In this document: piece after piece, positions 1,288-32,534 of the stretch
Layout: every line of letters starts with the position of its first letter
Position numbering within the stretch: position 1 is the first letter of the stretch
DNA from: Epithemia pelagica
Lineage: Eukaryota; Protista; Bacillariophyta
Length of the DNA: 64,000 nt
Reading direction: 5' to 3'
Assembly (NCBI GenBank): GCA_946965045.2
Contig: OX337234.1
Coordinates: 2,728,001-2,792,000, forward strand
Notes under the pieces: generated by a model
The model's database searches: none
What the model was told of the DNA's origin: nothing
What the model saw: the letters and a program-made list of their open reading frames with translations, nothing else
Translations under genes and position numbers: made by a program

Positions 1288-2093
1288 TATAGTCGTGGTT
1301 GCACCGTCCGGTATCTTGGTGGCGTCGGCCCACGCCGGATGAAATGTGCTCCGCGTCATGCGACGTGGGGCTGGATGGGTATGCCTTGGACAGTGGAACG
1401 GATGGTGACTGCTCCGACAATCGACAGGCACATCCCAACAAGAGACGCAAAACAGCAGCAGCAGAACCGCCATGACAAATCCCAACAGCCACCACCAAAG
1501 GTGGCAGGAAGGCCCCTGCAGCTCACAACCATGATGTGTTGGAACAGGACACCACTCCTCTATAGTCGGAGAAACTCGACTGCTTCTTGTATACCGTCGA
1601 AACTCGTGGGACCTATACTTCATCCTTTGGTCTCGCAATTTTTCGCTCCTGGAAGACTTGCGCTAGCCTTTGTCGGATGACCAAACAACGTTTCGTAGAG
1701 GATTGCTTCCCCGAGCCGTGGTCCCATCCGTTCGTTCGGACCCAACTACTCCTCCAACTATATCCTTGGAGGCTATCTTTCGAGCTAAGTTAGCTACGAT
1801 GTATTGTCTCTGGGGGCTTTCTTCGCCCCCAATGATACTACCTAGTCTTTCCAGAGAACTTTGAAACGTAGAATGAATGATGATATTTGAGTCAACACGC
1901 GAGGTATTATTTGGCAAAGCATCCTATCTCATTTTTTTCTGGTCGTGGGTGTTGACCAAGAAAAAAAAAAAAAAAAAAAAAAAAAAGAGAGCCAAACTGT
2001 GAAGTGAACAACATCAGGGACGATACCAACGAAGCGAGCCGCAAGTCGATCCCTTAAAACAAACTGTATCCGCCAGACAAGGGCACGCCGCCG

Positions 2094-5000: not shown

Positions 5001-5285
5001 AGCGACGACAACCTAGACCCAGGAGAGGGCGACAACGAATTCTCTGCAACGACCATGCAAGAAATCGAACTCATTTTCAAGTACGTTGCACACAACAACC
5101 CTTCCCGCATCGAAGAAATGCGACAATTTTTAGAAAGAACAAAGTCATTTACGAATGACACAGACGCGCAAGATGCTTGGAGGTTTGCGCAGACTTTGGT
5201 ACAGTCTGGCAACCCCAACATCGCCGACTCGCGCACCGGCCATGTGGTCCCGCATGAAGATAGGGCCAAAGGGCCACATGAGTAA
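2094..5285 (+). CDS. ORF1 of the CRE-like element (1063 aa, low-complexity termini)
   Basis: Long ORF inside the element; its stop codon overlaps the ORF2 start region (ATG at 5278). Confidence 0.65.
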   Translation: MGRDADPPWAIPAENMIPMAKPRPNCQPNADPPPPIGWKHIQRTAATTWTMESLHGLRKNKQSKQRQPSPLSTRHHGKPQSPKKAKNTEPNGYPDSPNVLRSKGPNPPRSHRCSKPNKRMTKTSPQMTLPDSRSTTTGHRHETNIKEQMHVDNSTVNVSLPRSGTHPPPTTNQETTTRATAKQIDDMASKTPNTKPSICPPICPPPTRMTGQLDQALQRVIAQLQMTRPTNQPKGLGHKTSENRVFHPKLSAEAPTDQPNYHQHPKMQVHSKPSSGRRQTRSKSNLTALSPLPLVDTKQHSTTAVTPDRRNINKENKKTNKKTTEEPTTDIHTEKTTVTTHDTNEKNTKNNTNNNNDKTTEKTNTNNNQDGNEQNTYGHTEEETQPTTKNKTNHDDTTTTVNNEPGSNSEAGTPTAKNPYLQPKTGTKRPPSSEPKTLIHLHVAVNHHQNPQIESTLPRLTEQAIKTHLNEVFFHHSKREEPMWLQVHSVDFLETKQSGSRQFRSDNQTRSTKGSGHTSTFHVTLSPAPANDVFDTEIFTEQGLRFVLQMWHKHHNDDFVYDEFDSQTVLRPGTKQSNPTINPRWDQINVYQPACNNRTSDTFGIVVGVPAQTIKHRRAALDLTGDIQNTLTPHLPRKLNYLDFFNHVGCRTGTFSGELKNKQRGQVPAIYITASLRNNFDALLRSYNAYQAANRNTELKWNHNNIQIIPMPTSQANRTATLEALKDIDQFFGACVRIKLKPINPEATDGDWKRLRHLREFVAVFPEFNNEDPDTQYYTLYLRKTPDTHLLTTNTIRQHPDFPENILLPTLAAVAATPPRQQTTNQDPTTPSSSSHTNKLLAFTNRLLRRKHNNLEDNTDEADADVLTTPTTKPKNPNSPPTNKRSASAMQPTDEEASDPYDDGTDWTPVAAQTNQNHFADRTSQNDDSKPPAKRNQFAALAEQTEDEQNNDDLMDTEESDDHSRALIGSDDNLDPGEGDNEFSATTMQEIELIFKYVAHNNPSRIEEMRQFLERTKSFTNDTDAQDAWRFAQTLVQSGNPNIADSRTGHVVPHEDRAKGPHE

Positions 5286-8200
5286 TCCAACCACAAAACC
5301 ACCCAAACACTGTCCCGTGCCAGATTGCCCGTGGAAAGTGCCCCCATTGACAACCAACCCCCAAGCATCACTCAAACAACACCTCATCACCGAACACAAT
5401 GAAACCCATCCATCGGATTACCTCACCCCAACCCTATGCACCCAATACGGCCTCCATCCATGTCCGACATGCGACACTCCCACTGCCATCTTCGCCACCG
5501 AAGGCCACCTTAGAAAACACGTAACAAAAAAACATAGTAGGTCAAAGACGAACATCGACTTAGTCCTACAAACCTACCGACATTCTACACCAGAAACAAC
5601 GGCAAACTGGAAAAACAGCCTAGCTTACATCCACAAACTACAAATATCCCCACCGCCCTTCCGTCGGAGCCTCTGGCACAAGCTTAAGCCACCGCTCAGG
5701 GCTGAATTTTATGCCACCTACAACAACGTGACCAATTGGATACTTGAAGCCACATCGCCGCTTGCGCCAACCATTCTGAAAGACGAACGGCCACCCGCCT
5801 ATGACGTCGACGCCACCCCATTCTGGAAACTGCTCATCCTCCTAGAGCCGTTGCTCCTTGCACCTATACAGGGCACAGTGCACCTCACCCATTCGAACGC
5901 GTTCAGAGCAAGACTTTCGCTGCTGAAAGCGGGCAGGATTGAGGAACTCCATAACATGATATGGAACCCAACACCTTTGCCAAACACAAGAACAACAAAC
6001 AACAAAAAGAAGCGACAAAACCAAAAAAACAAACAACAACATCAGCCGACTGACCCATTGCCTTCATGGCGGCTAGCCTCCGCGCAACAACTGGCAGACT
6101 TAGGCAACTACCGAGCAGCAGTGAAAAGACTCACAACCAACACACCACCTGCAACCTTGACAACGGCACGAATCGACAGATGCCAAAAACAACTCTTCCC
6201 TGAAAGACGACAGCCACCGCCGGCGACAAGAGCGCACGGTCACACAAATATGCCTCCACCGGCAGCACAATACCTGAAACTACAAGATAAACAGTTTGAG
6301 TCAGCACTCCGACAAATGAAACCGGGCACGGCCTCAGGACCGTTCGCCACGTGCACAGACATCCTCGTGTCTATGGCAACATACAAAACAACAAGCGCAC
6401 CCGACGCAACACGGCCATACTTTCACAACATAAAAGCCCTGATCCAACTCGTGGTGACAGGACAAATACCAACCTCTGTACAACAAATCCTCGCAAGCAA
6501 TTATTTCCTTGCCTTACACAAGGACATGGCAAACCTGGAAAGACTGCGACCGATCGGCATCGGCACAGCCATACGAAGAGTAGCGGCCAAAGCCGCTCTG
6601 GTGCATCTCACCGACGACATTCGCCCCCTCCTCTTGAAAGGAGGCCAATACGGGATACAAGTCCCCGGGGGGGGTTGATTTTGTGGCCCAAACAACCGCA
6701 ATGGCGGTTAAACAATACATTGACAAGACTCATGATCTGGAAAACGATCTGGAAAACAACACAACAGAAAACAACACAACCGAAAACAACCAGCCAACAA
6801 CATCTCCAAGCCGGGCTCTCGTCATGCTAGACCTGGCAAACATGTTCAACAATGTCAGCCGAACCGAAGCAAGAAAGATTTTGTTAGAGAACGAAGCGAC
6901 AACACAATTGGTCCCCCTTTTCGACCTACTAACCAAACATACCTGTAACCAATGGTACTTTGATGACAACAAAGCGGCCAACTACCTCACATCAACCGAC
7001 ACTCCAATCCCACTCGTTCACCAACGAGAACTGTCGAACTGGAAAGAAAGTACCAACGAATACATGACAACCTTCCGTAAGACTCTGTCACTTTTTGCAA
7101 ACGAATACGCAGAAGAGAGCTTATACGTACCAACGAGGTATGATCACACAACACACAATCGCCTTTTGAACCACACTGTGCAAGAACACACAATCCCAAA
7201 ACTATTCACAGAGACCGACCCAAAGCAGCGAATCTTTTTGCCCGGCTTACTTTCGCCCCTAACGAGTATGGCTCTCTCTCTTCCACTCACCGCAACCAAA
7301 TTCCGTTTCCCAAACAGTGTCTTCCGAACCGCCATCAAACGGAAATTAAGATTGCCTTTGTTCGTCCGAGACCCCACACAATCCTGGCCCCAACGATGTC
7401 GCTGCTCAGCCACAAAAGAGATCGACCCAATGGGTGACCATCTGTACTCCTGCACCTCTGCTTCCAAAACACCTCTTTCAAATGCCATCAGAGACACACT
7501 CTACGACATTCTCCGCCAAATCGCTCCCGCAGCCGAAGCCGTCGACACTCCCCATGATGTCCACATCGAACCCCCAGGTTTGACACCACAACACCAAAGA
7601 AACATTAGACCAGCCGACGTCGGTATGCTCCTGTCCAAGCCGCACAAAAACTCACCGTTTCAATACGTCGCGATTGACATTACTATCCCACCTCCCCAGC
7701 AACCCCAAACCATTCTTGACCCGTCCGACCACAACACACTCGCCACTTTGGCATCTAGGACGCATCAAGAAGCGGCAAGGGCCAAGTTTTGCCGAGACCC
7801 CGAGACATCAAAACACCTTCTCCACAATGGCATATACCTTCTACCTTTTACGGTAGACCATCTTGGAGCGCTTGGTTCTTTCGCCGACCGTCTCCTTTTT
7901 CCATCAATTTCTCAACCACATTTGTTCTCAACGACACAACCACCACCTTGGACCAACGCCTTCTTCGGCAAAGACGAAAGACGAAGCAAAGCACATCCTG
8001 CGGCATACAGACTCTTTCAAGAAGCGTCAGACGCACCAAGCAACCTCTTTACCGCCGCCAACAGCAAAACAAAAAAATTCTCTTACCCAGAAGCCCATAT
8101 CTACTCAATCGGGCACTATGCAAAAGCCTCCCTTGGCCATGCAATCGTTTCGGCACTGGCAACTCATGCCAATACCAACATCGCCGCAATACGACAACAC

Positions 8201-8350
8201 CAAACAACACGAAAAACGAGAACCACTCAGTTGCAAAATCTGGCTACACCATGTTTTGCTCCGGTCACTCCCATCTACTCCCCCGCACCTCTGGCACAGT
8301 TCCTCAGTGTCACGGACGAAACACCCCTCCTTTGCGTACCCACCGCTTAG
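5278..8350 (+). pseudogene. ORF2 of the CRE-like element: zinc fingers, truncated RT, CCHC knuckle and RLE
   Basis: HCPVPDC..HLITEH, CPTC..HVTKKH, RLRPIGIGTAIRR, QYGIQVPGG, LDLANMFNNVSR, CRC..DHLYSC, RPADVG..IDITI. Frameshift in a G8 run (6667-6674); QG and YxDD motifs absent. Confidence 0.8.
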
Positions 8351-8438
8351 GAGTCCATTTGTTATAGACCGTAAAATAGTAAAAAAAAAAAAAGAGGACA
8401 CAAGTCCACACTACTGTTGTGTTCGTCGTCATGACACC

Positions 8439-11400
8439 ATGGCGGTTTCGATGCGAAGCAATGCGGTAAGGTCGTCGTCCAACAACTACTACTACTCCGA
8501 GTTCGACGAGTACCACCACTATCTTTCCTCCGATGGAGAAGGAGAACCACGAATCCGTCCGTCGCGACGTCACGAACAACCTCCCGTGTCGTCGGGACCT
8601 TTGCCACACTCGTTGGCGGCGGCCGTGTCTCACCATCCCAATCACACGCAGCAGCACCACCGTCCTCCTCCTCCGGTAGGTCGTCGTCGTGGTCGGCGTC
8701 CTCGTCGTCCTCGTCGTCGTCCTGGAGACGACGAGTGTCTTCTGTGTGGCTGCAATCCACACGATCCCCTCTTGTATTGGGTCTTTGTCTCCTTCTTGTG
8801 TGTGGGAACCTGTATTGCGTTTGTGGTGGTATGGAATGCCGCTCCCCGCCATTACTACTCCACCGTTCGCTACCAAAGACACGAGGATTCGGTGCTTCCG
8901 ATCCACCACGTTCACTCGAATCGAACTCCGATGTTTTTGACTCCACAACAGCAACAAGAACAACTCGAACACCAACAACAACTCGAAAATCAACAACAAC
9001 AAGTCGAAAACCAACAACAACAACCAGCACAAGCACTTCGGCCCTTGCCCATTGTCCGAGTTCGCCATGGTCAAACGCCCAAAATCAAGGTTCGCCTGGG
9101 GACGGGTACCACGGGCAATACCAGCCACCATAATCCTCCTCCCACGGCACCACCGACGGTCGAGTCCCTGCCGCAAGACACGTCACCCATTATTCATGCA
9201 TCGTCATCGTCCTTGGTGGATGAATCCTTGTCGTCGTCTCATGGATGGTCATACTGGACATCCTGGCTGTTTGGATCGTCGTCGTCGTCACCCTATTGGC
9301 CCGACTCGTTGGTCGAAGGTGTTCCCGGAGAAGTGGCCGACCAAGCCTATCTGCAAACCTTGGTCGACTTGGAACGACGCATCAATACCTTGTACCCTAC
9401 CGCCAAAGAACAAGCACAAGCACCACCGCAGTCATCGTCGTCGTCGTCGTCGTCGTCGTCGTCCACAAGCCTCGTTTCCTGCCGCCGTGTCCCCTATTCC
9501 AACCCAACTGCCACGGACCGTACCAACAATCGCACGGATGATTCGTCGTCGTATTTTTATTATTCCACCAATCCCATTGACTCGTGTCGTCCTCCCAAAC
9601 CAAAAGCATCCTTGCAGGGCACCACCACCACCACCAAGGGGGAACCATTGTCGTCGTCCTCCTCCTCCCAGGACCAAAACCACAATTACCAGGGACCCTA
9701 TTATTATTACAATCCACTGCCCCACACGGCTCGCATTGTGTGTGATCAAACCATTCCGCCCCAACAAGCCGTGCTGTTTGAGCAATTGTGTCCGGAACCC
9801 GTGACGGGCCGATTGTTTCCTCGGATTCCCACGGCGACGTCGGGCCTGGAACTGATGCCTCCGATTGTTACTCGCTTTGATCATGTTCGACCCTTTTCCA
9901 AACCCGCCAAACTACAAAAGGATTGTGACGTGCCGTGTTTGAGTCGTGGCACCATGGCCTTGACGTCGTATCGGTACATTGAAGGGACGAATTGGAAAAT
10001 TATCATGTCCATGGAAGGTCCCGTGTATTATCCCGAACTCAAGGTCGATCCCATGGCCTGGAAACAACATCAATTTTATTCCACCACGTCCTTGCAATCG
10101 GAAATTCCCATTCCCTACTTTTCGCACACGGATTATCCCATTTTGGATTCCACACCCGTCGATTTTACCAAGGCCATTCGGGGTGCCGTCTTTGTCGCAC
10201 GCAATTGTGTGAGTTCCAATCGTCGCGAACAATTGGTGCGGGAACTCAAGGCCTTGTCGTCGTCCAAGAAGGACGATCGTGTCGTTCGCATTGAATCCGT
10301 CTCGTCCTGTGAACACAATGCCGAATTACCGGCCGGGGCCGACGTGTCGGATAAGCAGAGTATATTGAACAAGTACTTGTTTGCCTTGGCCTTTGAAAAT
10401 CAATGCGCCACGGATTACATTACCGAAAAACTCTGGGGTGCTTTCATGGCGGGCACTGTCCCCGTCTATTATGGAGCGCCCAATGTTCGCGACCATGCCC
10501 CGCCCCATTCCCTCATTCTCGTGGACGACTTTGCCACGACACAAGCCTTGATGGAGTATTTGGAACAAGTCGCGTCCAATCAAACCCTGTACGAGTCTTA
10601 CCATGCCTGGCGGTACCAATCCCCACAACCGTTTGGGACCAAATTCAATTTTACGCACACTCATGGGACGTGTCGTACCTGTCGATGGGCCTATGCCCGG
10701 TTGTATGGATTGGGATGGAATGCCGTTCGTCAACAAGTCCAAGATGTCCGCATTCCACGCCAAACCTGTGTCCAGGCCACGACAGGGTTGTTGCAACATC
10801 CCGCCACGGAACAATGGATCCATGCCTCGACCGGTACCACACTCCCGGCGACTCGATGGAAGAAAACAACAAGCCCCCAACCACAACAACAACAACAACA
10901 AGACCAGCACAACAAGAAAACAATGCACACGACCACAAAGATCCACACCAACACGTCCACAACCCTGGCAAGTCAAACGGCCAGGTTTCTCAACACCGAG
11001 CAGCAGTGTCTCGAAGGAACCCTGGCTCAAGACAAGATTACCTTGGACCTGGATCCTCACCATTCACAACAGGGAGGAGGAAACGTTACCAAGGCTTCTG
11101 TAGGGGCCAAACTGGTCCGTGTCGTACGTCAAGTCGATGGTGTCATTGATATGGAAGTTTATGCCGTCCATCCAAATGCCTCCTCCTCCTCGTCCTCCTC
11201 CTCGACTGTCGATCCTCTGGTTCAATTGCATTTGCGCGTCTCGGCCTTGTCGGCATCAAGAGCAAGCTTTGCCCGTCTCCAACGAGGTCGAGGACGATTG
11301 CAAGATGGACTCTCTCGCATTACCATTCTGGCCTCGCCCAAGACGGTGACGGTTTCGGCCAAGGCCAATGTGTTGATTGTCAGCAAACTCGTCTTTCCCC

Positions 11401-18907: not shown

Positions 18908-21538
18908 TCAGGAGCGCGAAAAGCCATCCATGGACGTATCCACAGACTCCTCATCTTGAACAAAGAGTGAAAAGATATTGTCCTTGTCGTCGGTAAACAA
19001 GACATCGACAAGTTTCGACCCAAAATCCGAAACACCATTCGGCAGACGGTTCTTGTTCTTCTCCAGAAACTCGTGTCCAATCCGTGTAACGACAGCCACT
19101 TGATGTGGGTCCAGGTCATCCACAGGCTCACCATGGAGCTGTCTCCAGTGACGACGACGGCGTCTGTGCTTGCTTCCAGAACCCCCAAGTCGCCGTCGTC
19201 TACTCTCGATGCAGACAGAAATGTCGGGAATAGTATAGGCTTCTGCCAAGTCGTAATTGACTTCAAACCCCAAATCATGTAATCCACCCACAGTAATGTT
19301 GGAAAGGATATTGACCGAATTGATCATACCGGTCAAGATTTCATTTCGCAAGCATCCTTCGTCCCAATGAACATAAATGGTACCCTTTTCTCCATCTTCT
19401 TCAATGGGAACTGTCCACTGACTGACATCTCCTTGTGCGCCACTGGTTTGTAGAATGTTCCGATACGCCTCGTTCGCGTGTCTGCCGGTGTACTCTCCCA
19501 GTTCCTCATACAGACCATTATCCTTCCACAAGGTTCCCAAGCCCAGGACATGTGCAATTTCGTGCGTCACTACACTCCCCAATGTGTTTTCATTCACCAT
19601 GGTCCACAAATCTACCGTATCCAGTGCCAGGTAGCCCGTAAAGCTTTTGATGAATCCCTGTGGATCCGTCCAGGTCAGACCCGGTCCCGCAAATCCCAAA
19701 ATGTTCAAATTGTTCGAACCAGACCCATCAATGGACGCCGCGGCCGCTTCAATGTAGATATCATCGACACTAAATCCCAAGACATTGTGACTGGTTCCAT
19801 CATCCGCCGTAAGAACTCGGCCCCATGTTTGCTTGGCGTTGAGAAAGGCTTTGGAGAAACTATGGAGTAGACTACCACTCTCCAAAAGACCTTTGGAAAC
19901 ATCCACAATCTCGATGCAAATATTGAAATTGTCCGGATCATTGTGTTCACAGAGCTCGGTTGCGGGAGGTTCCACGAGGTTTGTGTTTCCCCTCTCGTCC
20001 ACTTGGAAGCAATGATAACCGGTTGAGAAGCGAAAGTCACCGCCCTCCAGAACCCGGTTCCCATTGACCTTGACTTCGTAGGAACCATTTCCTTCATCAC
20101 AACATATGCCATCGCCGTAATCATCCATCCCCCGAAAGCAATAGGTCCTACCAGATTCAATGTCAGTCGTGAGCGAGCCTTGCGTTGTCTCTGTCCGTTC
20201 GTTTTGAAGGATAATCGTGCCTTGTTCGTCGGTAATTTCAAACGTAAACTCTTTGGGGAAAGCATCAGCGTTCCAGTGCACTTCCACTTGTGCCTTGAGA
20301 GTGTTTTGACTTCCAGTCCATACAGTACTAGTCGAAGGGGGAACAAACGAAGGAGTCACTAGGAGATCTTGGGTCGGACGCGGCGATGGAAGCGACGATG
20401 GCGTCGTCAGAGGTGCGTTCGTGGGCCATGAAGAGGGATTTCTGGATGGCACATTGGTGGGCCACGGAGAGGGTGGTTGCCACAGAGAAGGAGGGATGGT
20501 CGGCAGAGGTGTTGGGACTCTCGACGGGTTTGTTATTGGAGACTTGGATGGAAGGGATGACGGCGTCGTGAGAGGTGCTTCTGTGGGCCATGGAGAGGGA
20601 TTCCTGGATGGCATGTTGGTGGGCCACGGAGAGGGTGTTTGCCACAGAAACGGTGGGAGGGTCGGCAATGGTGTTGGGACTCTCGATGGGTTAGTTGTCG
20701 GAGACATGGAAGACCCTCGTAGAGCGGGTGCCGGTGTACTTGAGGATGGGTTCTTGGTGCCATCATCCTTTGACGGCACTTGCGATGGAGATTTTGATGG
20801 CATTCGAGATGGTGCCTCTGTCATCACCGATGGGGTCGTCGTGGGATGAGTGGAAGATGGAAATGCGGAAGGCCGCAGCGTCAGTTCCGGTCCCTCCAAA
20901 GAAGGACGTACAGTTGTGACAATGGTCGATGGGGGAGCGGATGGAATCCTGGTGGGCCGTAGAGATGGCGCTGGTGTGGTCGGTGGATCGAACATGGTTG
21001 GTTCCTCGGATGGACCTGTGGATGGTGTTTTGGATGGCCGACGCGATGGAGCGACCGTCATTGCTAAAGGAGAAACTGTTGGATCCAAAGACACTTTGGA
21101 AGCCGGTCCTGCTGACGGCGAAGGCACATTCTTGTCATCTAGTGTTGGAGCAACAACCCAAAAGCAGGTTGCATCGGTTTCGAGCTCCTCGACTGGACCA
21201 GTCTTGAACTCCACCTGCAACGTGTAGCAATACATCCCTTGGTCCAACATCTTGGGTGAAAGGACAGACACATTGCTGGTAGCTTCATCTGACACCTTGA
21301 CTTTGAGTTTGTGTTTCTTTTCTTTCTTGCCATCTGGACTGGTTTTCCAATATTCAAGCTTGGCCTTCTCCACGGATTCGGGAGGAAAGGTTGCCTCAAA
21401 TCGTACGTGGCCCGTAGACTCAATAGAATCTTGGACCGGAACGAGACTTGCCAAGTAGTTTTCCTTGGATGCAGCTGTGGAAGTGAATGCAACCACCATG
21501 ATGGTGAGACAACCAACCAGCCGGCTGTAGTGCATCAT
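18908..21538 (-). CDS. Secreted leishmanolysin-like (M8) zinc metalloprotease with Pro/Thr/Ser linker
   Basis: HEIAHVLG, HWDE..NEILTG and ITVGGLHDLGF; signal peptide after the ATG at 21538. Confidence 0.85.
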   Translation of the reverse strand: MMHYSRLVGCLTIMVVAFTSTAASKENYLASLVPVQDSIESTGHVRFEATFPPESVEKAKLEYWKTSPDGKKEKKHKLKVKVSDEATSNVSVLSPKMLDQGMYCYTLQVEFKTGPVEELETDATCFWVVAPTLDDKNVPSPSAGPASKVSLDPTVSPLAMTVAPSRRPSKTPSTGPSEEPTMFDPPTTPAPSLRPTRIPSAPPSTIVTTVRPSLEGPELTLRPSAFPSSTHPTTTPSVMTEAPSRMPSKSPSQVPSKDDGTKNPSSSTPAPALRGSSMSPTTNPSRVPTPLPTLPPFLWQTPSPWPTNMPSRNPSPWPTEAPLTTPSSLPSKSPITNPSRVPTPLPTIPPSLWQPPSPWPTNVPSRNPSSWPTNAPLTTPSSLPSPRPTQDLLVTPSFVPPSTSTVWTGSQNTLKAQVEVHWNADAFPKEFTFEITDEQGTIILQNERTETTQGSLTTDIESGRTYCFRGMDDYGDGICCDEGNGSYEVKVNGNRVLEGGDFRFSTGYHCFQVDERGNTNLVEPPATELCEHNDPDNFNICIEIVDVSKGLLESGSLLHSFSKAFLNAKQTWGRVLTADDGTSHNVLGFSVDDIYIEAAAASIDGSGSNNLNILGFAGPGLTWTDPQGFIKSFTGYLALDTVDLWTMVNENTLGSVVTHEIAHVLGLGTLWKDNGLYEELGEYTGRHANEAYRNILQTSGAQGDVSQWTVPIEEDGEKGTIYVHWDEGCLRNEILTGMINSVNILSNITVGGLHDLGFEVNYDLAEAYTIPDISVCIESRRRRLGGSGSKHRRRRRHWRQLHGEPVDDLDPHQVAVVTRIGHEFLEKNKNRLPNGVSDFGSKLVDVLFTDDKDNIFSLFVQDEESVDTSMDGFSRS
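20385..20695 (-). repeat. Two-copy 162-bp (54-aa) coding tandem repeat
   Basis: TNPSRVPTPLPT..PSPWPTN..PLTTPSSLPS twice; GTTGGGACTCTCGA at 20511 and 20673. Confidence 0.85.
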
Positions 21539-22327
21539 GATCCGTGCCGTCCGAAAATGCCTACGACGAACGGTCTGCCACTCCAAAATATGAGCTTTTC
21601 CAATGGCGCTCATGAGATGGATTCATCCTTGCGTTCCGGACTGGTCCAAAATTTCACTTTGGAACGGCGGGAAGGAGGCTCTTTCAAACGAACATTCCCC
21701 TTGTGGTTGTGTGTGGGCGGTCTGCGAGAGAAGGATCCAACCGACCAAAACCATGTGTCCAAGCCATTCTTATGTAACTGAATGAAACTAAAGCCTGTGT
21801 GACGATCCGTTGGGTGACACCGAGTATGTTCTTTCTTCGCACCGCTATCGTTGGAGCTAGACACATGAAATACATACACAAAAGTTCCGAAATGTACCAA
21901 CCACGTGATAGCATACCTGCCACGCTCACACACCAAGGACGCCTTGGTAAGGATGTTCTCCTCTAAGCGTTTGGTGGATAGGACGTACAAAGATCAAGAA
22001 TAAGAGAGCATCGTCAATCGTCTTTTTTTTTTCTTTTTTTTCTTGTAGAGATTTTGATATCAAAAGGGGGAGTTCCCGGATCGCAATGCAATCAACCCCC
22101 AGTAAAATTCCGCCCCCAATTCTGTTGATAATTCAAAGGGGTCCTCTAAGCTAGACAGTACAATATGGTAGAGCTACTAGCTATGAGTACCTTATTATGC
22201 GACATGCCCGACACAGATTACGGAAGATACAAGATACCTTTTGCACTACTTAATCGTAAACAGTACAATCCGCCTCAACATGTGAGACACACTTCAACCC
22301 CAACAATACACAGAATTCAGTCCAATA

Positions 22328-22348
22328 CCAGCTAACGGTGTAAACGGT
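22328..22348 (+). repeat. Left TIR CCAGCTAACGGTGTAAACGGT
   Basis: Reverse complement of 28432-28452 with one mismatch. Confidence 0.9.
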
Positions 22349-22848
22349 CGTAGCCGGCCTTGCCGAGACGTGGCCAGAAGCGCCTTCATTTACTATGACA
22401 CAAATAGTGAGAAGCCCTTTTGTTAAATGAAAAACTACCATCAGCCAAAATTTTGGAGATTTAGGGTAGCCCCTAGCTTGGACCCGTTTCAACGGATCAA
22501 TTGGACCCCTGAGAGCGAGACCAACGGTCGGAAATGATCCAATGGTCATCCAAGCAACATTCCCCGCCGTTGGTCTCGCTCTCAGACATCCAATAGGTTC
22601 CCAAATTTGGCTCCTAAAAGAACAGCCCCTTTTTTCGTCGGATGGTACTCACCAAAAAATGAGCGGCCTATGGAACTTCAGCCGACGCACCAACACTAAC
22701 ATTAATACCACTACAGTAAATCTATGTTAATCGCACATTAGTCTCATCCAATTTTCCAAAAACCAACCATCTCGTCCAACTGCGTTTGACTTGATTTCGA
22801 TACCATTATAAGGATTACATCCCTATCCCCGAGAGACAACAAACAACG

Positions 22849-25800
22849 ATGTCTGCATGCTCTTCTCACCAAGCAAACGAAACAGCAACCATGGATCCCT
22901 GCGCCTGTTGCCCCCTAAGCAACGACCTATTTCTACCCTCATCATTGCGAGAGAATTGCAGCACCTCTGCCAACAAAGAAAATACTGGTGATCCAATCAG
23001 TTCCACCTCAACGAAAGTCACAACAAAGAACAAGAAGAAACCAGCTAAAACTCCCTTACAACCACAACGTCGTTCGCGGAGACAGCCCTCTCGTGGCTCG
23101 AGAAAGAGAGGAGGCGGTCCTCCACCTCCTGCCTCTGCGGCATCTCCAAACAAACGAACAAGAAGCCAACGCCAAGAAGATAATGCACCCGTTGAAGACA
23201 CTGTTTTCGAGCTCCGCCGCATCCACAAGATCATCGAAGACTTCAAGAATGAAGACTGGGTCCCCTGCTCTGTTTTCGGATCTAACCGTTTGAAAGAATG
23301 GGAGGATGAAGATTTTTTCTTCTGTGGTCAATGTGACAACGCTGACTGGGATGAAAAGTCTGGCGAAAAGCTCAAGGTAAATCGGAAGAGGAAAAAGGGT
23401 CCCTACACATGTATTGCCAAGCACCGTAATTTAGTTAAACCAACGGCCCGTAGATATCCTGATGGTCCACCCCCAAGAATCAACAAGAAGAAACGACGAC
23501 AAGATCGACGGCATAGGCGAAATGACCCCCAGCCCATACCTACAAGTCGATTTCAACCTCCTGTTATGGGACCTAGTGCTACTCTCTCCGACATTGAAGA
23601 AGAGGATGAAGAAGATGACGTTGAAAACAACCGTACAATCTCGTCTGTAGAGCAAACAGAACCTCAAGAACAATTGGTCGATGATGGAACAGGCCCACCT
23701 GAACAAGAAGAAGCTTCTACTCCCATAGAAAGTCAAGGAAATCAGTTAAATGATTCTGAATCAAGCGAGTCTGAAGCACCTGTTGAACAAGACAATACTG
23801 TTACGATGGCCGTTGATTCTTCTGTAGATATGCCAGTGCCCATACAACCATTGAACCCGTCAATCAACCTTTCGGAGTTATCACTACAGGAAGAAGTGAG
23901 ACTGTTGAAAGAACGTCTTAGAAAATCGGAAGAACAAATAGAGACTCAAACAAAGAAGCTTCGCAACGAATCAGACAAGCTGCGAGATGCTAAGAAGAAG
24001 ATAGAAGAACTCGAACGAAATTGTGCTACATGCCAAAGTCGTCGCCTACCCACCTGTGTCACATCGAATGACCAGGCAGACACCCTCGTACAACATATCA
24101 GGAGTGTCATTGAAGATGCAACTAAGAACATCCGGAGTAGTAACAGTCGTGCTTTGAAGTATTTCTACGGCCAAGTCGCAGAGTTGTGTCTCGACGAGAG
24201 CGTCCACGAAGGGCAACTCAAGCAATGTTCTTACTCAGTCTTTCGAGACTATGTAAGGCAGAATATCTATACCCCCCACCGTGTACTGAAACAAATGGAT
24301 CTTCGGGGGGGTGTACTGAACTACGAAGGTATCGAACTACTGCGTTCCGTAGAGACAGATGGTGTTCCTAGAGAGAAGACGCTTCTTCCTAGTTCTGGTT
24401 GTATGAAAGCCTACGCTGCTTTGGTAGAAAGCTTTGGACGCAACATCTGTCCCTTCATCATGAAGACAAGCTCGAAAAATGGCACCGAAGGTTTTGCTTT
24501 TCGTGCAGCCGATGTACTCCTTTGCCTTCTGAAGGCTGGTCATCTTCTAAACTCCGAGGCCGTGGTGAGGTCGATACGAATCGCTGCCAGTCTTGATGGC
24601 GCACAATTTACTAAGAATTTGTCCCACACCTTGGTTGGTATCAAATTCAACGATCCATCCAACCCATATGCGCAGTCACAACAATCAGTCTTTCCTGTTG
24701 GATGTGTGGCAATGCCAGAAACGACTGAGAACGTGGTTGGAGTTTTTGCAAGAACCTTGGAAGAAATCAAGGAAGCCGTTGGAGTTGTATCCAAGGCACA
24801 CAAGATAAAGAAACCCACACTCTGTTTCAATTGTGATATGAAATGTGATTGGGAACTCAGTGGACGAGGGGGTGCCGCCAAGCAGCATACTTATCCCTGT
24901 TCTAAATGCGCCATTCACAGTGGACAGCTATGCCAACCATCGGGGATAAAACCAGACAAGTGCAAGACCTGTACTCAATTGGATCATCATCGCGACCCAA
25001 CTTGGATTTGCCGCCATGTAAAGATGCTCACTGAGGAGCATACTGCAACCTTGAAGAAAGAGGTCGACGACTTCCGTAATGGTCCCCTGCCTCTAATCGC
25101 TAAAGACCTTGCTTTGCTTGAGGAGCATAGCGAACTGTCGATGCAAGATGATCCCAATATTGTTGCAACGGAGATGCAAGCCAACGATATCCTTTCGATC
25201 CAATTTGACTTGAACCGGGCGACACAGGAGCAGAGGCAGGAGTATTCTCGACTGGTCACTTCAGATTTGAGGTTGCGTCGACTCCAAATGACAGGATCGT
25301 TGGAGGAACGACAGGAACGATTAAAGAATCAGAGAGTCAAGGAGTGGTCCTACAAAAGAGCATTGGAATGTCTGGACAATGCCAAGGCCTCCCAGAAGCG
25401 TATTGCCATCGTGCTTATGATGGACGCCATTCCATGCTTGCTCCATCTCGAGAATCGAATGGGGATCAAGTTTCTGACCATGGTGCTAAAGACGGGGATG
25501 AACAACTCGATCAATCCAAAGGACGGCCTTGAATTGGAGTGGATGCCTCATACAACAACAACAAAGGAAGACCGATGTGCTGCATTCGTCAGCAAGGTCA
25601 ATGGCATTATGAATTCAACAATTCTTGGATCAGAGGACCAACCAACCCAATGGACAGTGCCATACGACACCAAAACTTGCAAGATTGGAGACATTACAAT
25701 GGATAACGTGAGGATTCGGAAGCTCCTCATCAAATTTGAGCTGTTGATTGATTGTTGCTTTGTGGATAACGAGAAGGCCGGCCTCTTTAAGTCTGCAATC

Positions 25801-26539
25801 TACTATTTCAGGGAGGGTCTGAAGAAAGTGAACGTGCGACATGAAATGTCGGACAGTGAGATCTTTGCTTTTCAGAAAGACATCGACTACTTCTACAGAG
25901 ATTGGTGCTCATTGTATGGAGTCGAGGGGATAACAAACTACGCCCATATGCTGGGTAGTGGCCATTGCATGGAATATCTATTGCATTGGCGTAACTTATG
26001 GTTGCATAGTCAACAAGGCTGGGAAGGTAAGTTCAATCCACAACTGTGTATTTGACTGAGGGCTCCATCAACTGACGGCTGACCTCCTATGTGTTATAGC
26101 CTTTAACAGTTTGTTTAAAAGGTTCTACTTCTCTCGGACACAGAGAGGAGGCGCGGGGAATCGGGGAACGGCGGAGAAGAGTAGGTTGCGGTCAATGGCT
26201 CGATGGTTGCAGCGCCGAATGGTGTTCCTCATTGGAACCACTGAGGAAGAGATAAAACAACAATTGGATCGGTCGCAAGATGAGATAGAAAACTTCGATG
26301 AATGGATTCGTGACAATGGGGGGACACTGGAGTATGGCTTGTCAAACAAGGACGGACCAATTCGAGTGGAGGACTTGGAGGGGGCAGTGGTCGATGACTG
26401 GGAAGTTGGTCTCCCTCCGAAACAGAAATCGCCGCAACAATCTTCCGGACAAGTTCCGGAAGAAGCAAGTCTCAGAACTGTGGACCTGTTGCGTATGTTG
26501 GATCAGAATGATGATCTGGAGAATCTAAATAATGAGTAA
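22849..26539 (+). CDS. RAG1/Transib-like DDE transposase, about 1205 aa in 2 exons (22849-26026, 26100-26539)
   Basis: SLDG, CDMK, YPCSKC, PCLLHLENR, ITNYAHMLGSGH and SQQGWE|AFNSLFKRF. Intron GTAAGT..GCTGAC..TAG at 26027-26099 joins the two ORFs in frame. Confidence 0.8.
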
Positions 26540-26590
26540 TGAGAAGCACTTGATGGATCGACACTAAATTCTTATATATCTTATTGCAAA

Positions 26591-28114
26591 CTAGTTGAAC
26601 TGACGAATTAGGAGAAGGACCTCGTCAGCATCTTCCCATTTATGAATTTCTTGTTGATCCATGGGGAGGTCGTGGTCGTAGAACACTCCGCCGATAATAC
26701 GAGACACAACAAACGGGCCATTCTCGTTACGGTTGACTGCTATGACCTCATACACGTTTTGCTCGTCCCAGTCAGTGAACTGGTGGCCGATCTTGATACG
26801 GCTACTGGGGGAGTCTTGGGCAGTCGACTTGGCAATTTTGTTAGGTGAAGCAGGGCTTGATGCTTTAGAGTGCTCGGGATCACTCTCGGTGGTGTCGGAA
26901 GGTTCATGTTGGTAGACATCGGTCGTGTCAGTCTTATCGTCAGATGATGTTGGTGTTCCTTGGAGAATGTTCTTGAGGTCCTCAGTGGGAGGGTCATTCT
27001 TGAGCTTTCCCTTGTGGTCAAGGGAGTACTGATACTGCTCGTATCCCACTACAACGCGACAATGAAAGTCGGACCAACAAAGGTCAACTCGCTGGTCACG
27101 AGATCTGACCTTGAAATTTTCTTTTTCCTCGGATGTAGATCCCTTCACAAGTGTCACACGGTGCTCGGGCTTGAGGGAAGTTCCATTGGGACCGTCGGCA
27201 AGAGTGGGTTTGCGATCGGTACATCCATAAGTACTGCCGAATCCAAGCAAGCCTCGTAAGAACTGGAGGTCGTCAGAACTCCGAAACCGAATAATGGTGG
27301 TAGGGTAGCTAATCTTGACTTTCTTCCTGGTGAACTTGGGGTCGATATCGAGATAGGACGCAGAACCCTTGGTTGTATGGATGTCTATGCCTTGGATTCG
27401 ACAAAGCTGGACAATATAGGTCCAGGTTTCTGTAGGTACAAGACCAATGGTATCGCCAGTCACTTCGTGTTCCTCGGCCTGGCCCGAAGATTTGTTCAAC
27501 AATTTCACGAGAGCCTTGCGAAGAAGGAATAGGCCAACAAAAGATGACTGGTGAAAGCATCTTGGGGGACGAACTGCCTTATCCACAATGAAACGACAAG
27601 CGTGCTCGTTCGGAAAGCAAAGCTTTGTCTTCTCCTCTAATGGATGTAGACAACCAACCGGAGGATCACTGTCAATGATGGGCATCCGGAAACGAACAAA
27701 GAAGAAATTGTCAAGGCCTTCAGTCCAAATGTTCTTGGGAGACTTGAATTCATGTAGGGAAAATACAAAAGCCGGGTGGGAAATAACGGAGGAGGCATCT
27801 TCTACGACGTCAAATGTAGTGGACGATTCGTATAGTTCCGTGTTTCGTGAACCAAGGCCCAGCATCACCCTGGTGTAATTGTGCTTGGGCAGTTTGGGGT
27901 GAGACTGGTCATTTAGATTGTAGCGGGGAAACAAAGGAGGGAACAACACAAACCTGAGGCCGGTGGCATTGATTCGAGAGTGGATGCGTGCGATCGTCGT
28001 ATCGTCTTTCTGTCCGGGAAGATGGATGTGGACAAACGACCCGATGCGGAGGTGATCGTCGAGTCTCTTTACGTAGAAAGGCGGCTTATTGATGTCCGGT
28101 ACACTCCGAAACAT
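26591..28114 (-). CDS. Transposon accessory protein with putative N-terminal BAH-like domain
   Basis: Intact ORF of about 507 aa from the ATG at 28114, inside the TIRs and tail-to-tail with the transposase (51-bp gap). Confidence 0.7.
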   Translation of the reverse strand: MFRSVPDINKPPFYVKRLDDHLRIGSFVHIHLPGQKDDTTIARIHSRINATGLRFVLFPPLFPRYNLNDQSHPKLPKHNYTRVMLGLGSRNTELYESSTTFDVVEDASSVISHPAFVFSLHEFKSPKNIWTEGLDNFFFVRFRMPIIDSDPPVGCLHPLEEKTKLCFPNEHACRFIVDKAVRPPRCFHQSSFVGLFLLRKALVKLLNKSSGQAEEHEVTGDTIGLVPTETWTYIVQLCRIQGIDIHTTKGSASYLDIDPKFTRKKVKISYPTTIIRFRSSDDLQFLRGLLGFGSTYGCTDRKPTLADGPNGTSLKPEHRVTLVKGSTSEEKENFKVRSRDQRVDLCWSDFHCRVVVGYEQYQYSLDHKGKLKNDPPTEDLKNILQGTPTSSDDKTDTTDVYQHEPSDTTESDPEHSKASSPASPNKIAKSTAQDSPSSRIKIGHQFTDWDEQNVYEVIAVNRNENGPFVVSRIIGGVFYDHDLPMDQQEIHKWEDADEVLLLIRQFN

Positions 28115-28431
28115 GGTGGATTTAGGATACAAAGAACGTGTTGTCAATCTGAATCAAAGGAGTTGTGCTTGATTGTTGTGTCAAACAACCATCTTGATCG
28201 TCTGCATTTGGGTCGTTTGTCATTAGTTCTCCATTGGATGTTTGCTTCCGAGTGAGCTTTTGGCAAGAATTGATGAGGTGAATGTGGATGGTGTTGCGAC
28301 AGAAAGGACATTTATTTCTTAACAAAATGTAAGTCGGATTCGGATCCTATATTTTATGATTAAGGTCGCCAGTCGGCATTTTGGTGAGGGCAGGCGCGAA
28401 ACTTGGCCCTGGAGGCACGTGTACACGGGAA

Positions 28432-28452
28432 ACCGTTAACACCGTTAGCTGG
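28432..28452 (-). repeat. Right TIR
   Basis: ACCGTTAACACCGTTAGCTGG followed by TA. Confidence 0.9.
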
Positions 28453-28739
28453 TATTGCGGTAGGATCACTACTACTTTCCAGCGGCAACGTAAATTACCA
28501 TATAGCTTTCTGCTAAAACCTTTCGTATCTCTCTATAGTATAGACACCTCTGGGGAGTGTTATGAGTTACCTGTGCGCGCTATGCATTATTCAATTCTTC
28601 TGGGACGGAAACTTCAGCGAGAGTGGGGGACGAAACAAAAAAATGCTCCTCGAAAACAACAAACGAGTCCTCTCTGTGGTCCTCTCACAAAACGATCCAA
28701 CAAACAATTGAGAACACAGCCCCAAACAACACATTCACC

Positions 28740-29471
28740 ATGATCGCCGCACCTTCAGAACTCAGCCGAGCAATCACAAGTGGAGATTGGTCCATGGCAT
28801 CGAAACTGGCCAAACGGTTCCCAGAACAAGCCCGAAAAAAGTCCAACCGTGAAGGGTTGTTCGATGGACGCACCAACGCCAGAGTATATCCGATTCATGA
28901 AGCGCTTGTGGCAAATGCCCCTCTGAGTTGCGTCAAGGCCCTGGTGGAAGCTTATCCGGACAGTCTCTTGAAAGCAGAGTCTTCGTATCATCGTTTGCCG
29001 TTGCACTGCGCTTGTCGCAAGAATGCCGATCCTGCCGTCATCTCATATCTGGTCCGGAAGAACAAGCAAGCGTGTCTTGAGGAAGATTCACTTCGACGTC
29101 TCCCTGTGCACTATGCATTGACAAATGGCGCCAACCCACACGTGGTGTCCATCTTGGTGAAAGCCGATCCAGGGTCCGTTCGTGGCTGCGACTACTCGGG
29201 CTGGACGCCAGTCCATGTTGCCATTAATGTATGTGCGTCGCCCACCACGGTGGCAACCATGCTCAAGGCCTTTCCAGAATCGGTCCTGCTCAAAACCAAC
29301 AAGCACTCGAGCATGCGAAGTGTGATACCCAAAAGCAGTCCGTATCGAAAGGAACACAAACAATTAATCGAAGAGACACAAAACGTTGTCCAAATGGACA
29401 TACACTTGCCTTCCATGCGTTACAATTCCATGCGGGCGAGAGAACAAATACTCCTATATTGCTCCCTCTAA
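28740..29471 (+). CDS. Ankyrin-repeat protein
   Basis: YPIHEAL, LPLHCAC, LPVHYAL and GWTPVHVAI repeats. Confidence 0.85.
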   Translation: MIAAPSELSRAITSGDWSMASKLAKRFPEQARKKSNREGLFDGRTNARVYPIHEALVANAPLSCVKALVEAYPDSLLKAESSYHRLPLHCACRKNADPAVISYLVRKNKQACLEEDSLRRLPVHYALTNGANPHVVSILVKADPGSVRGCDYSGWTPVHVAINVCASPTTVATMLKAFPESVLLKTNKHSSMRSVIPKSSPYRKEHKQLIEETQNVVQMDIHLPSMRYNSMRAREQILLYCSL

Positions 29472-29880: not shown

Positions 29881-31897
29881 TCACTTGTAGTTTCCATCCA
29901 GGGCTGGGCTGTCTCTGCAGTTGTGAAGGCTTGGCTTGTCTCGATAGTGACATTTGAAGTTTGTGGTACTCAGGCAACAATGTTCCCTCAAACCTCCAAC
30001 AGTTGTAGTCGAGGCCAACGATTCACTTGCAATCTCCTGTGTTGTCTTGCCAACGCATTGGTCGTCCACATACCACTCTCCCATTTGTTGAAAGAACTTG
30101 ATTTTGTTATCCTTGTTTTCGGTCCAGCTCATGTGGAAGACAATGGGCTCCACCTTACCTGAAAAAATGTTCTTCATCATGTGTGGCTTGCGATGCCATT
30201 GGTAGCCACAAGGGAGATCTGGAGACTCCCGAGATATCACCTTTGTAACCAGCCCGTATGCCAATACATGTTCGCTGAGAGTATTGATGAGAACGTGTTG
30301 GTGACTTTTGGAACTCACAATGCTTGGCATTGAAAACAGCATCGCGTTGACAAAGGCACGAGAACGTTGATTGTTGTCGATAAAGTAAAAACCCGAATTG
30401 GCATCGTAGGGTGAAAATCGCAAACTTCGTGATCCATCTTCTTGAAAGATGATATCGTACTCCTTGGTCCACCTATTTTTGTCATCAAAATAGTCTTTGA
30501 TCGGGTGTCGAAACCACACCACATCGGCGTCTTGGAACAGAATGTCGAATCCCAGCTGAGATATCAGATGAACGCTGATCACTTTCATTGTCATTAACGC
30601 TATAAAGTTGTTGTCACCATAGTGCTTAGCAGCTTCATGGGGTATGTTTCCAAACATCTGTCCCAATGAAATCATCATTCGCCCACAGAAAATTGAGTAC
30701 CACCACATGATGAGAACCATGAGACGCATTACTGGTACGTACTTTTTCATTGTGATATGCAGTGAGACCCAAGGACGTTACCAAATCATGGGTATCTTTG
30801 TCTGCCGCAAATATGAGCACCGATGACGTATCAATGCCTCGAGCCTTGGCGTTACAGGCAAAGTTCATAATCAATTCGGACTGTCCAAAGTTGCACACCA
30901 TTACGGTTATTACGCGTTTTCCATTCCCTCTTTTGTAAGGCTTGAGATGTTTGGTGAGAGTCTTGAGTTCTCGTAATGCTTCCTCCAGTAAATTCAAGTA
31001 ATTTTGCAGTATATCAACGCCATTCTGGAAATGGCGCTCCGATGGTGGAATATTCTCATCAATTCCATTAGCTCCAAGATTCGATCCTACCAGTCTCAAT
31101 GGTTGATCTTTGCTGAATGGTTCGTATTTTCTCTTCTTTTTGATCGGAGAAATTCGCATCCATTTTTGGGCGTGGTAATTACTTGTTGGGTAGGGGACCA
31201 AGGCCAAACATGACCTTTGTGTGTGTACAGGGAACACTACAAGTTCCATGCAACGCTCCAGGGCTTGATCGGTGGACGAGACGACAGGAATCGCAGTCGT
31301 TGACTCACCTGGATGAGAAGGGTCCATGTGAGTGTGATTCGTGTTTCGTGTGCGTGCTGTTGCTTTGGAACCATACAGTACCAAGACATTGGAGGATGAT
31401 TGCGGATGGTTGCGGTACTCCACATTCATGGGGATACCCATATCAATCGTTTTGATAAACTCGGACGTCGGAATTGCGGCCATTCCAGCAGCTACATCAC
31501 GAATGGTCGAAAGATCCAAGCTATTCTTCGATGAAAGGGTTTCCCGTGCATCGACTTGGTGTAGATTGTCCAAATTGGTCTTGTGGACCAAACGATTCGA
31601 GTTGGCACATGCCTCCGCCAAACGCTCTTGTACAAGACGTTCGACACGATCCATAAATTCTTTTTCTAAAGTAGCCGTTCTCTCCTCCACTATCTGTTCC
31701 ACAAGACTATTCATGACACCCGATCTACTTTGGCCGAACGGAAACATGGTGTCACGCTCATGGAGCAACAACACCATGGTGGCCAAGCCAAGATATGTCA
31801 CAAGCGCCAAGAGTAGTAACGCATACCAAATTTGTTTGATACCAAAGGGTGGTCGCTGCTCTCCCCGATAATTCGACGCCGAGAACACGTGAATCAT
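29881..31897 (-). CDS. Nucleotide-diphospho-sugar transferase (GT77-like), 2 exons (31897-30743, 30657-29881)
   Basis: LFQDADVVWF, ANSGFY and FHMSWTENKDNK, plus an N-terminal TM segment. Phase-0 GT..AG intron at 30658-30742. Confidence 0.85.
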
Positions 31898-32534
31898 GTT
31901 GCAACGAAACTGTGAAGCAATCCGCAGTGATTCTTATTGTCGCGAGAGTCGACGGTTGCTCCCACGTTCTGATGCGTATTTTTGTTGCTTCGCCTTTTCG
32001 TCCTAAATTCGATCCTCTTTTGATGGTGTGTTTCGTTCCTTGGGACTCTCAAGTCTTTGGCTTCTTCATGCTAGGTTTTGCTCCGTTGAACATTATGCCG
32101 AAAAAAGTTCAAGGTGCGCTCTCCGACGCAATTGTCGTCATTTGAAAACAGCGGTTGCGGTGCAAGACCATCAGTCAATGAGGTCGAAGATTCGTTGAAT
32201 GAAACATGTGGAGGACTTGAATAACATCGAATCGCTCACCGAGCATGAGAACGGAGGAAGCGATACATATGGGACATGGAGGCTGCAGTGCCGCCATTGT
32301 TTGGCCTTCTGTGTGGGGGCGAAGAGGACGCGTTCGTAATACACCCCTTAATTTTGTACCGTTATTTCCCCTAACCAACAAAAATCTCACCAGACTGTAC
32401 GAGTTATAAAGGGGTGGAATATGGTACCCCTCCTTCGTTACGGTTCTCCCCTCCATTAAAATATATCCTTAACCCTAACGGAGCTTGACAAATTCGTTCC
32501 GACCATGTGGCGACAATAAGATCCATCAAGCAGG

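Follow-up and report, generated by a model that had tools for sequence, protein, structure and literature searches.

A two-gene element and its termini

The window analyzed here, a 64,000-nucleotide stretch of Epithemia pelagica contig OX337234.1 (GCA_946965045.2, positions 2,728,001 to 2,792,000 of the forward strand), carries a 6,135-bp DNA transposon at 22323..28457, in which a transposase gene (open reading frame 1, ORF1, + strand) and a partner gene (ORF2, - strand), both intact, lie tail to tail with about 50 bp between their stops. Two intact convergent genes inside terminal inverted repeats (TIRs) had been proposed in an original prediction made from the letters alone, and the reading frames and the enclosing inverted repeat bore this out. 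The TIRs, however, had been placed as 21-bp repeats with ends at 22328 and 28452, while they are 26 bp long and reach five bases farther out on each side, the left one at 22323..22348 (+ strand, starting CAATACCAGC and containing AACGGT) and the right one at 28432..28457 (- strand, complementary to the left one at 25 of 26 positions). This 5-bp misplacement had hidden the CACTA-like CA..TG ends of the element. Inside the left end, a subterminal inverted repeat (22500..22594, 37-nt arms, 84%) carrying AACGG motifs lies 5′ of ORF1, and six AACGG copies were counted in the left 526 bp.

The boundaries were determined with the contigs of four public sequencing runs (X1 to X4) mapped to the region, which represent at most three samples of one study; X1 and X3 are one sample, and X1, X2 and X3 together are two. 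X4 covered the flanks partly and the element not at all and yielded no contig bridging the site, so it was not used. Contigs of other copies diverged from the window exactly before 22323 and after 28457 in X1, X2 and X3, and therefore the termini were fixed as CAATACC..GGTATTG; the flanks of these mapped copies differed at both element ends. Further, an empty allele joining 22321 to 28458 was found in three of the four runs (X1, X2 and X3). The short side of this contig comprises only 27 letters, under the caution mark of 30; 430 bases of the left flank were matched, and the right-flank match continued past small indels at the same depth. Because both flanks match on at the same depth, the record was taken as the allelic chromosome. 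Summed depth in X1 was about 335–360 over the element vs. 88 for the right-junction contig and 80 for the empty allele, an excess that, though depth gives no copy number, is in keeping with several copies. Consistently, two copies among the related metagenome loci described below (L051 and L052) were 100% identical over 4,812 bp in different flanks. These results indicated that the element is real, intact, polymorphic and recently mobile.

A chance test on the 14-bp TIR core was weak when taken alone (2 exact matches; 5 of 100 shuffles reached 2 with 2 mismatches allowed), and the TIRs were accepted despite it on the strength of the reads and of relatives that have the same termini. Two other readings of the ends, CCAG ends with a TA duplication and a duplication-less insertion into a fixed palindrome, were rejected, as other copies end at 22323 and 28457 and the empty allele is without CAATA and TATTG. 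Three further joints at one depth were seen within the element (22436–22570, 22600–25972 and 26036–28431; X1 and X2), and one contig of the same two runs matched only short patches of the element, the right end included; with unassigned sequence between its pieces, it may be a deleted or short, non-autonomous derivative or else a diverged relative.

Missing from the empty allele are 6,136 bases, one more than the element has, and the C that flanks both element ends in the occupied allele (22322 and 28458, + strand) is single in the empty one. Therefore, a 1-bp target duplication is tentatively assigned to the window copy, while the chances that it is a property of the family are about even. 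In agreement with this, a T stands at the end of at least two left flanks of other copies and at the start of at least two right flanks, the two sides being unlinked; these were read by eye from merged vs. single-contig rows, taking ties as resolved alphabetically, as the rows suggest, and the second contig mapping at the right end comprised 4–13 contigs per run. A 2-bp flank match was found in none of seven two-ended metagenome contigs of the CAATA type, and a 5-bp match in none of nine two-ended relatives with both flanks readable.

The transposase gene and its predicted fold

ORF1 occupies the frame 22795–26055 on the + strand, with the first ATG at 22849. Exon 1 (22849..26026, residues 1–1059) encodes an N-terminal Cys/His cluster, an acidic linker, a coiled coil and a predicted RAG1-type core with the three catalytic residues, and exon 2 (26100..26539, + strand) encodes a conserved helix and a C-terminal tail (profile match at E-value 8.8e-15; no Pfam match). 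Between them, directly after the catalytic Glu, lies a putative 73-nt GT..AG intron (26027..26099, + strand), whose removal gives exactly the 1,205 amino acids that had been predicted and a joint reading SQQGWEAFNSLFKRF. Comparison of homologues argues for this intron, as the motif S/T/A-QQGWE-x-F/M/L/Y-N at its site was scorable in 57 of the 61 transposase homologues (core identity 23–99%) and ran uninterrupted in 42 of them, whereas the other 15 stop at the same place and look like unspliced gene calls. The only species-named homologues come from the diatoms Epithemia clementina and Fragilaria crotonensis, and for this reason the host is a probable diatom, as the original prediction also had it.

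The first and second catalytic Asp (residue 583, 24595..24597; residue 663, 24835..24837) and the catalytic Glu (residue 1059, 26023..26025, within an invariant SQQGWE), all on the + strand, are in frame at the positions proposed earlier and invariant in all 31 aligned cores, a set comprising the window and 30 of 39 loci examined, from which near-duplicates and truncated ends were omitted. Equally invariant are a CxxC after the second Asp, a further Cys/Cys/His set following it, the His of LLH and an H-x5-H pair. The earlier motif-by-motif pairing of this protein with RAG1 agrees with these invariant columns and with the whole-core fold match described below, but the His pair is H-x5-H against the H-x4-H quoted for RAG1, and at the level of single residues the pairing is by motif only. 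Upstream of the core, a C..CxxC..C-x3-H cluster (23266..23424, + strand), likely a zinc-binding module, was recognized by eye in most of 21 homologue N-termini.

For structure prediction, the intronless homologue P0007, 46% identical to the window protein over the core, was chosen so that the helix after the catalytic Glu was present. Its model had a predicted local distance difference test (pLDDT) of 81, with values of 85–94 at residues 41–120, the region of the N-terminal Cys/His cluster. A Foldseek search, of the kind that the original prediction had proposed, placed RAG1 on top (E-value 1.6e-10), followed by HzTransib and BbRAGL down to 2e-3, and the next unrelated row had an E-value of 0.04. 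In a wide structure search, the model matched RAG1 with a Z-score of 19.6 (root-mean-square deviation, rmsd, 4.8; 455 aligned residues; 11% identity), then BbRAG1L (18.5), HzTransib (12.8), the P element (10.6), ISCth4 (8.2) and Hermes (6.5); 455–507 residues were aligned with RAG1 and RAG1L vs. 384 with HzTransib, and identity in the structural alignments to RAG1, RAG1L and Transib was 11–14%. The alignment to 4WWX begins at RAG1 residue 405, which suggests that the model contains a counterpart of the region that binds the nonamer. By its ESM features, the window's own core likewise points to RAG1 clusters, at 0.96; a Transposase_21-type transposase was absent among the rows listed for this core, with which distant kinship is still compatible.

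From these models, the transposase is predicted to belong to the RAG1-type fold class. Special kinship to RAG1 does not follow, because RAG1 and Transib were the only members of the wider clade recognized among the solved-structure matches, where no EnSpm, Chapaev or Plavaka structure was noticed. ESTA elements likewise match RAG1 by HHpred (PMC12730594).

The convergent partner gene and its conservation

ORF2 lies in the frame 26591–28153 on the - strand and, with its ATG at 28114, encodes 507 amino acids (26591..28114). Nine close homologues and 135 at profile level were found, and a model built from 115 aligned rows, of which 77 were proteins and 38 were locus frames, reached a pLDDT of 89. 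It is predicted to consist of a BAH domain at about residues 9–170, an alpha/beta domain at about 185–390 and an SH3/Tudor-like barrel at 434–507. The top 18 rows of the wide structure search were all BAH-containing (best Z-score 10.6, rmsd 2.7, 119 aligned residues), with which Foldseek concurred. ORF2 alone had no match in Pfam and none by sequence among solved structures, while its profile weakly matched the BAH domains of Rsc1 (E-value 0.0047) and ORC1 (0.083), and Pfam BAH was matched by one of 45 family members scanned (6e-4). These models thus predict an N-terminal BAH domain in the partner, which the original prediction had called a non-RAG2 protein without identifying it. This call agrees with the model, since beside a BAH domain, a domain with helices of about 200 residues and a barrel of 70 residues there is no room for a kelch propeller. 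The middle domain found no match in the wide search of the whole model, a result that does not speak for a new fold; the same search gave no DNA-binding fold either, and the viral structure library gave nothing at E-values up to 0.001. As leads only, the nearest ESM clusters of ORF2 residues 1–400 (26915–28114), at 0.78–0.86, were Mucoromycota hypothetical and BAH proteins and clusters with Transposase_21 or DUF1258, which hints at a possible kinship of the partner with the BAH-like modules that are fused to other CMC transposases.

Conservation of the gene pair was evaluated in metagenomes, where 318 stretches were confirmed and the best 80 loci used. With a partner profile built without the locus frames, and with 21 loci excluded for having less than 500 nt after the transposase, a convergent partner homologue was found in 57 of the 59 testable loci at a median gap of 48 nt, and none on the other strand; the two loci without a match have only 568 and 604 nt after the transposase. 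Identities of transposase and partner co-vary across 21 elements (Mantel rho 0.75; none of 2000 permutations as high). This shows that the two genes have been inherited together stably down to 23% transposase identity. The nonsynonymous divergence (dN) of the partner was far below its synonymous divergence (dS) in six of eight pairs, the other two being saturated, and judged by these rates the partner is under purifying selection; its dN was about 1.5–1.9 times that of the transposase core.

Complete relatives of 4.6–5.2 kb with TIRs of 12–16 bp were present among the metagenome loci. Their termini read CAATA, CACTA, CAGTA or CCTTA, and just inside the ends of ten of them, some being close kin, AACGG/CCGTT occurred 13 times on the left and 16 times on the right vs. 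about 2.9 expected per side. One element within the otherwise CAATA-type clade (L018:909-6030) has the canonical CACTA terminus at both ends. Six loci (L049, L051, L052, L057, L061 and L070) make up a sister clade whose termini are CCTTA(A/C/G) and which shows signs of a 2-bp duplication. The flanks of L051 and L052 match only crosswise (GT/GT and AT/AT) and those of L057 read GC/GC, which suggests that the CCTTA clade may make a 2-bp duplication. In a quick tree, in which the window sits on a long branch and which was used only for the CAATA/CCTTA split, three CCTTA elements fell on a separate starred branch. At another locus, two related elements stand in tandem, with about 245 bases between the right end of the upstream copy (L025:1-17) and the left end of the next (262).

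Small circular or viral genomes were rejected as the source of the 5–6 kb metagenome contigs, as TIRs with unrelated flanks lie inside them. Viral contigs gave 36 pattern matches and no confirmed relative, and 120 single matches to a 15-base terminal motif without a profile match for either gene; a scan of prokaryotic genomes gave no locus. The last profile search returned 16 proteins, all of the same transposase family as far as identity shows, and reached no other named lineage.

Relation to known transposons and the proposed role of the partner

The element was compared with described systems, beginning with ProtoRAG and the RAGL elements (BbeRAGL, PflRAGL-A and AanRAGL; PMC9435367 and PMC10629977). 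Shared with them are the predicted RAG1-type core fold with its DDE residues and C2/H2 zinc ligands, two genes within TIRs in convergent order (tandem in AanRAGL), and a second gene with a chromatin-reader-type module, PHD in RAGL and a predicted BAH here. In contrast, the partner here is modeled as BAH, alpha/beta domain and small barrel rather than six-bladed kelch and PHD, the termini are CAATACC rather than a heptamer starting with CAC as in recombination signal sequences, and the apparent target duplication is 1 bp (2 bp in the sister clade) rather than the 5 bp of RAGL and canonical Transib. The transposase also shows no sequence-level similarity to RAGL and carries an insert of about 110–140 residues and the extra invariant Cys/Cys/His after CxxC. 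Of the earlier label "ProtoRAG-like", therefore, the convergent layout stands, whereas RAG2, the CAC heptamer, the 5-bp duplication and RAG1 sequence similarity do not; the broader claim of an apparently autonomous RAG1/Transib/CMC-related transposon is supported by the empty allele, the copies at other sites and the fold match.

Transib (HzTransib, PDB 6PQN/6PQX) resembles the element in core fold, short TIRs and cut-and-paste movement, but has a single gene, while here a second gene is conserved and the transposase has about 1,000–1,200 amino acids. Duplications of 2–3 bp are noted for some Transibs in a preprint on the Nozomi lineage (10.64898/2026.08.26.747230). With the CMCT clade (EnSpm/CACTA, Mirage, Chapaev, Transib, Plavaka, ESTA, as well as Lanisha) the element shares the DDE triad and the C(2)C that follows its second D, invariant in the 31 cores, and the 5′-CA..TG-3′ termini of the window and the CAATA-type relatives, the sister clade starting with CC. 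It differs in the His pair before the catalytic E, with both His invariant but spaced H(5)H rather than H(3-4)H, and in the apparent 1-bp duplication, shorter than the 2–5 bp stated for the clade (both clade features from PMC12730594); no Pfam Transposase_21 or other transposase family is matched. The H(5)H pair is likely an equivalent zinc pair.

CMC-type transposases with at least one conserved accessory gene are described for Sly1-1 of Neurospora (PMC4592977) and giant red-algal Plavaka (10.1101/2025.02.11.637652). The Sly partner is given there as of unknown function and divergently transcribed in Chaetomium, and the Plavaka accessory genes as methylase, SET and oxygenase types in elements of 17–19 kb; the term BAH is absent from the main texts of both papers. 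Lanisha, proposed as a separate cut-and-paste superfamily with EnSpm-like motifs, comes from moss (PMC8245031), and no plant name appears among the 77 transposase match rows, most of them nameless; at a distant level, the element and Lanisha may be identical. Since the DDE triad, C(2)C and CA..TG agree with the CMCT clade while the His spacing does not and the duplication length is unsettled, the element was allied to this clade and not filed in a described family: it is probably a separate two-gene lineage allied to CACTA, Chapaev and Transib, distinct from both ProtoRAG and Transib.

Taken together, we consider the element to be probably a two-gene cut-and-paste transposon in which a RAG1/Transib-like enzyme is served by a facing partner, likely a BAH-based chromatin-binding cofactor. 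By analogy with RAG, BbeRAGL and HzTransib (PMC10629977), a transposase dimer would bind both CAATACC ends; as in RAG/Transib biochemistry, each end would be cut through a nick and a hairpin on the flank; and strand transfer would integrate the element at a very short stagger (1 nt for the window copy, 2 nt for the sister clade). The partner would act in the nucleus for the element, likely engaging nucleosomes via its predicted BAH domain and barrel, and would thereby make the element's ends or target chromatin accessible to the transposase, roughly the job that the RAG2 PHD does for RAG1, by an unrelated protein. The parts of this proposal differ in strength: the element, with its observed ends, empty site and copies elsewhere, and the enzyme chemistry, with invariant DDE and zinc ligands on a structure-predicted core, are very likely as described; a need for the partner in mobility is likely; action through chromatin binding is favored with less assurance.

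Several observations weigh against this reading. The fold was predicted for P0007 and not for the window's own protein, and the ESM recognition value of 2267 lies just below the 2300 mark. Against solved structures, singly or as profiles, the core gave no RAG1 or Transib match at E-values up to 10 and coiled-coil noise only; in the 39 transposases (ORF1 and 38 homologues), Pfam gave coiled-coil or chance matches and no transposase family, Transposase_21 included. For the partner, the match of the C-terminal barrel (Z-score at most 6.1) is at background level, and the BAH position facing an aromatic-cage Trp of ORC1 is L, V or I in 75 of 108 rows and F in 8; being mostly aliphatic, it makes a classic methyl-lysine reading doubtful. 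The partner may instead bind the nucleosome surface or a protein, as Sir3 does. The metagenome loci are not independent, as at least ten pairs are near-identical, so that the count of 57 in 59 overstates independence, and shared descent alone explains the co-divergence of the two genes. As to the duplication, the empty haplotype is diverged from the occupied one (7 substitutions and 19 gap letters in 430 bases), and a one-base indel could thus mimic a 1-bp duplication; a single-base flank match was seen in one of the seven two-ended CAATA-type metagenome contigs, which may be chimeric.

Overlapping with the cofactor proposal, and possible though doubtful as the better description, is a partner that serves as an obligatory structural subunit of the transpososome, binding the core directly and needed for cleavage as RAG2 is. 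The near-universal pairing and the RAG-like convergent layout speak for it, as does the longer alignment of the core with RAG1/RAG1L than with the stand-alone HzTransib. Tao et al. (PMC9435367) report the alpha11-alpha12 region, to which RAG2 binds, as retained in RAG1L and in subgroup I Transibs; the latter retain it without a partner gene. Partner and RAG2 also share no fold, and the partner evolves faster than the transposase core. Rather unlikely, to a slightly greater degree, is a sequence-specific DNA-binding or anti-silencing factor, with En/Spm TnpA or the VANDAL accessory protein as the model, that would sit on the subterminal AACGG motifs of the element and keep it active without touching the transposase. 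Their enrichment just inside the ends fits this, as do the degenerate look of the BAH cage and the middle domain without a fold match, and Plavaka and VANDAL elements are described as carrying accessory genes that have functions in chromatin (10.1101/2025.02.11.637652). Yet the motifs are few, several of the ten elements scored are close kin, the partner model matched no DNA-binding fold, and the N-terminal Cys/His module of the transposase or a host factor could bind the motifs instead.

That the element is a true RAGL/ProtoRAG or Transib member, its RAG2L replaced or diverged past recognition, is improbable, even though RAG1 is the best structural and feature match, the layout is convergent and another stramenopile, Aureococcus, carries a RAGL element (PMC9435367). 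Identity in the structural alignments is below the 26% average across RAG1L and Transib cores (PMC9435367), the termini are CAATA/CCTTA instead of CAC with no 5-bp duplication, the D-to-E distance is 396 residues vs. about 254 in RAG1 (RAG1 numbering as in the original prediction), and the partner has a different, confidently modeled fold. BAH domains are common host modules, and the second gene might in principle be a captured host gene or passenger without a role in transposition; its constant place and strand, kept with transposases down to 23% identity, and the purifying selection on it largely refute this and make it very improbable.

How the two-subunit RAG complex arose from a Transib-type enzyme with one gene is a standing question, RAG2 being the best-known case of recruitment. 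The lineage described here appears to pair an enzyme of the RAG1 fold, in the same orientation, with an unrelated protein of the reader type, kept over deep divergence, and would allow a comparative test of what a second subunit contributes, be it activation, chromatin access or target choice. A search of titles and abstract starts, with Repbase Reports, Dfam, most subscription papers and the Lanisha structure outside its reach, listed no paper describing the element; a convergent BAH partner was not found described in the papers searched, and the five diatom terms looked for are absent from the supplement of the RAGL survey (PMC9435367). It is a speculative extension, on present evidence more doubtful than likely, that this is an undescribed superfamily-level RAG1-fold lineage, widespread in diatoms, which independently recruited a cooperating BAH subunit in a RAG1-RAG2-like layout and of which one clade makes a 1-bp stagger, shorter than reported in the CMCT clade. 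If so, nature would offer, in intact and living form, a parallel to the step that produced RAG, and a confirmed 1-bp duplication would mean that a RAG1-type active site accepts a target geometry far from the 5-bp stagger. The window copy is intact, polymorphic and small enough for cloning, and an active native DNA transposon could serve diatom tagging.

The transposon is inserted between a leishmanolysin-type M8 peptidase gene (18908–21541, - strand; Pfam E-value 1.4e-8), which has a long Pro/Thr/Ser-rich stalk with a 162-nt tandem duplication, and a divergent ankyrin-repeat gene (28740–29471, + strand), over which contigs about 87% alike were mapped in all four runs, suggesting paralogues. 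Beyond the latter, a nucleotide-diphospho-sugar transferase frame (29881–30777, - strand; PF03407, E-value 3e-21) is probably the last exon of a gene starting in the frame 30635–31933. At 2001–10000, the strands are strongly skewed in A and C along about 8 kb (AT skew as high as 0.51, GC skew as low as -0.36), which suggests a long low-complexity coding or repeat region.

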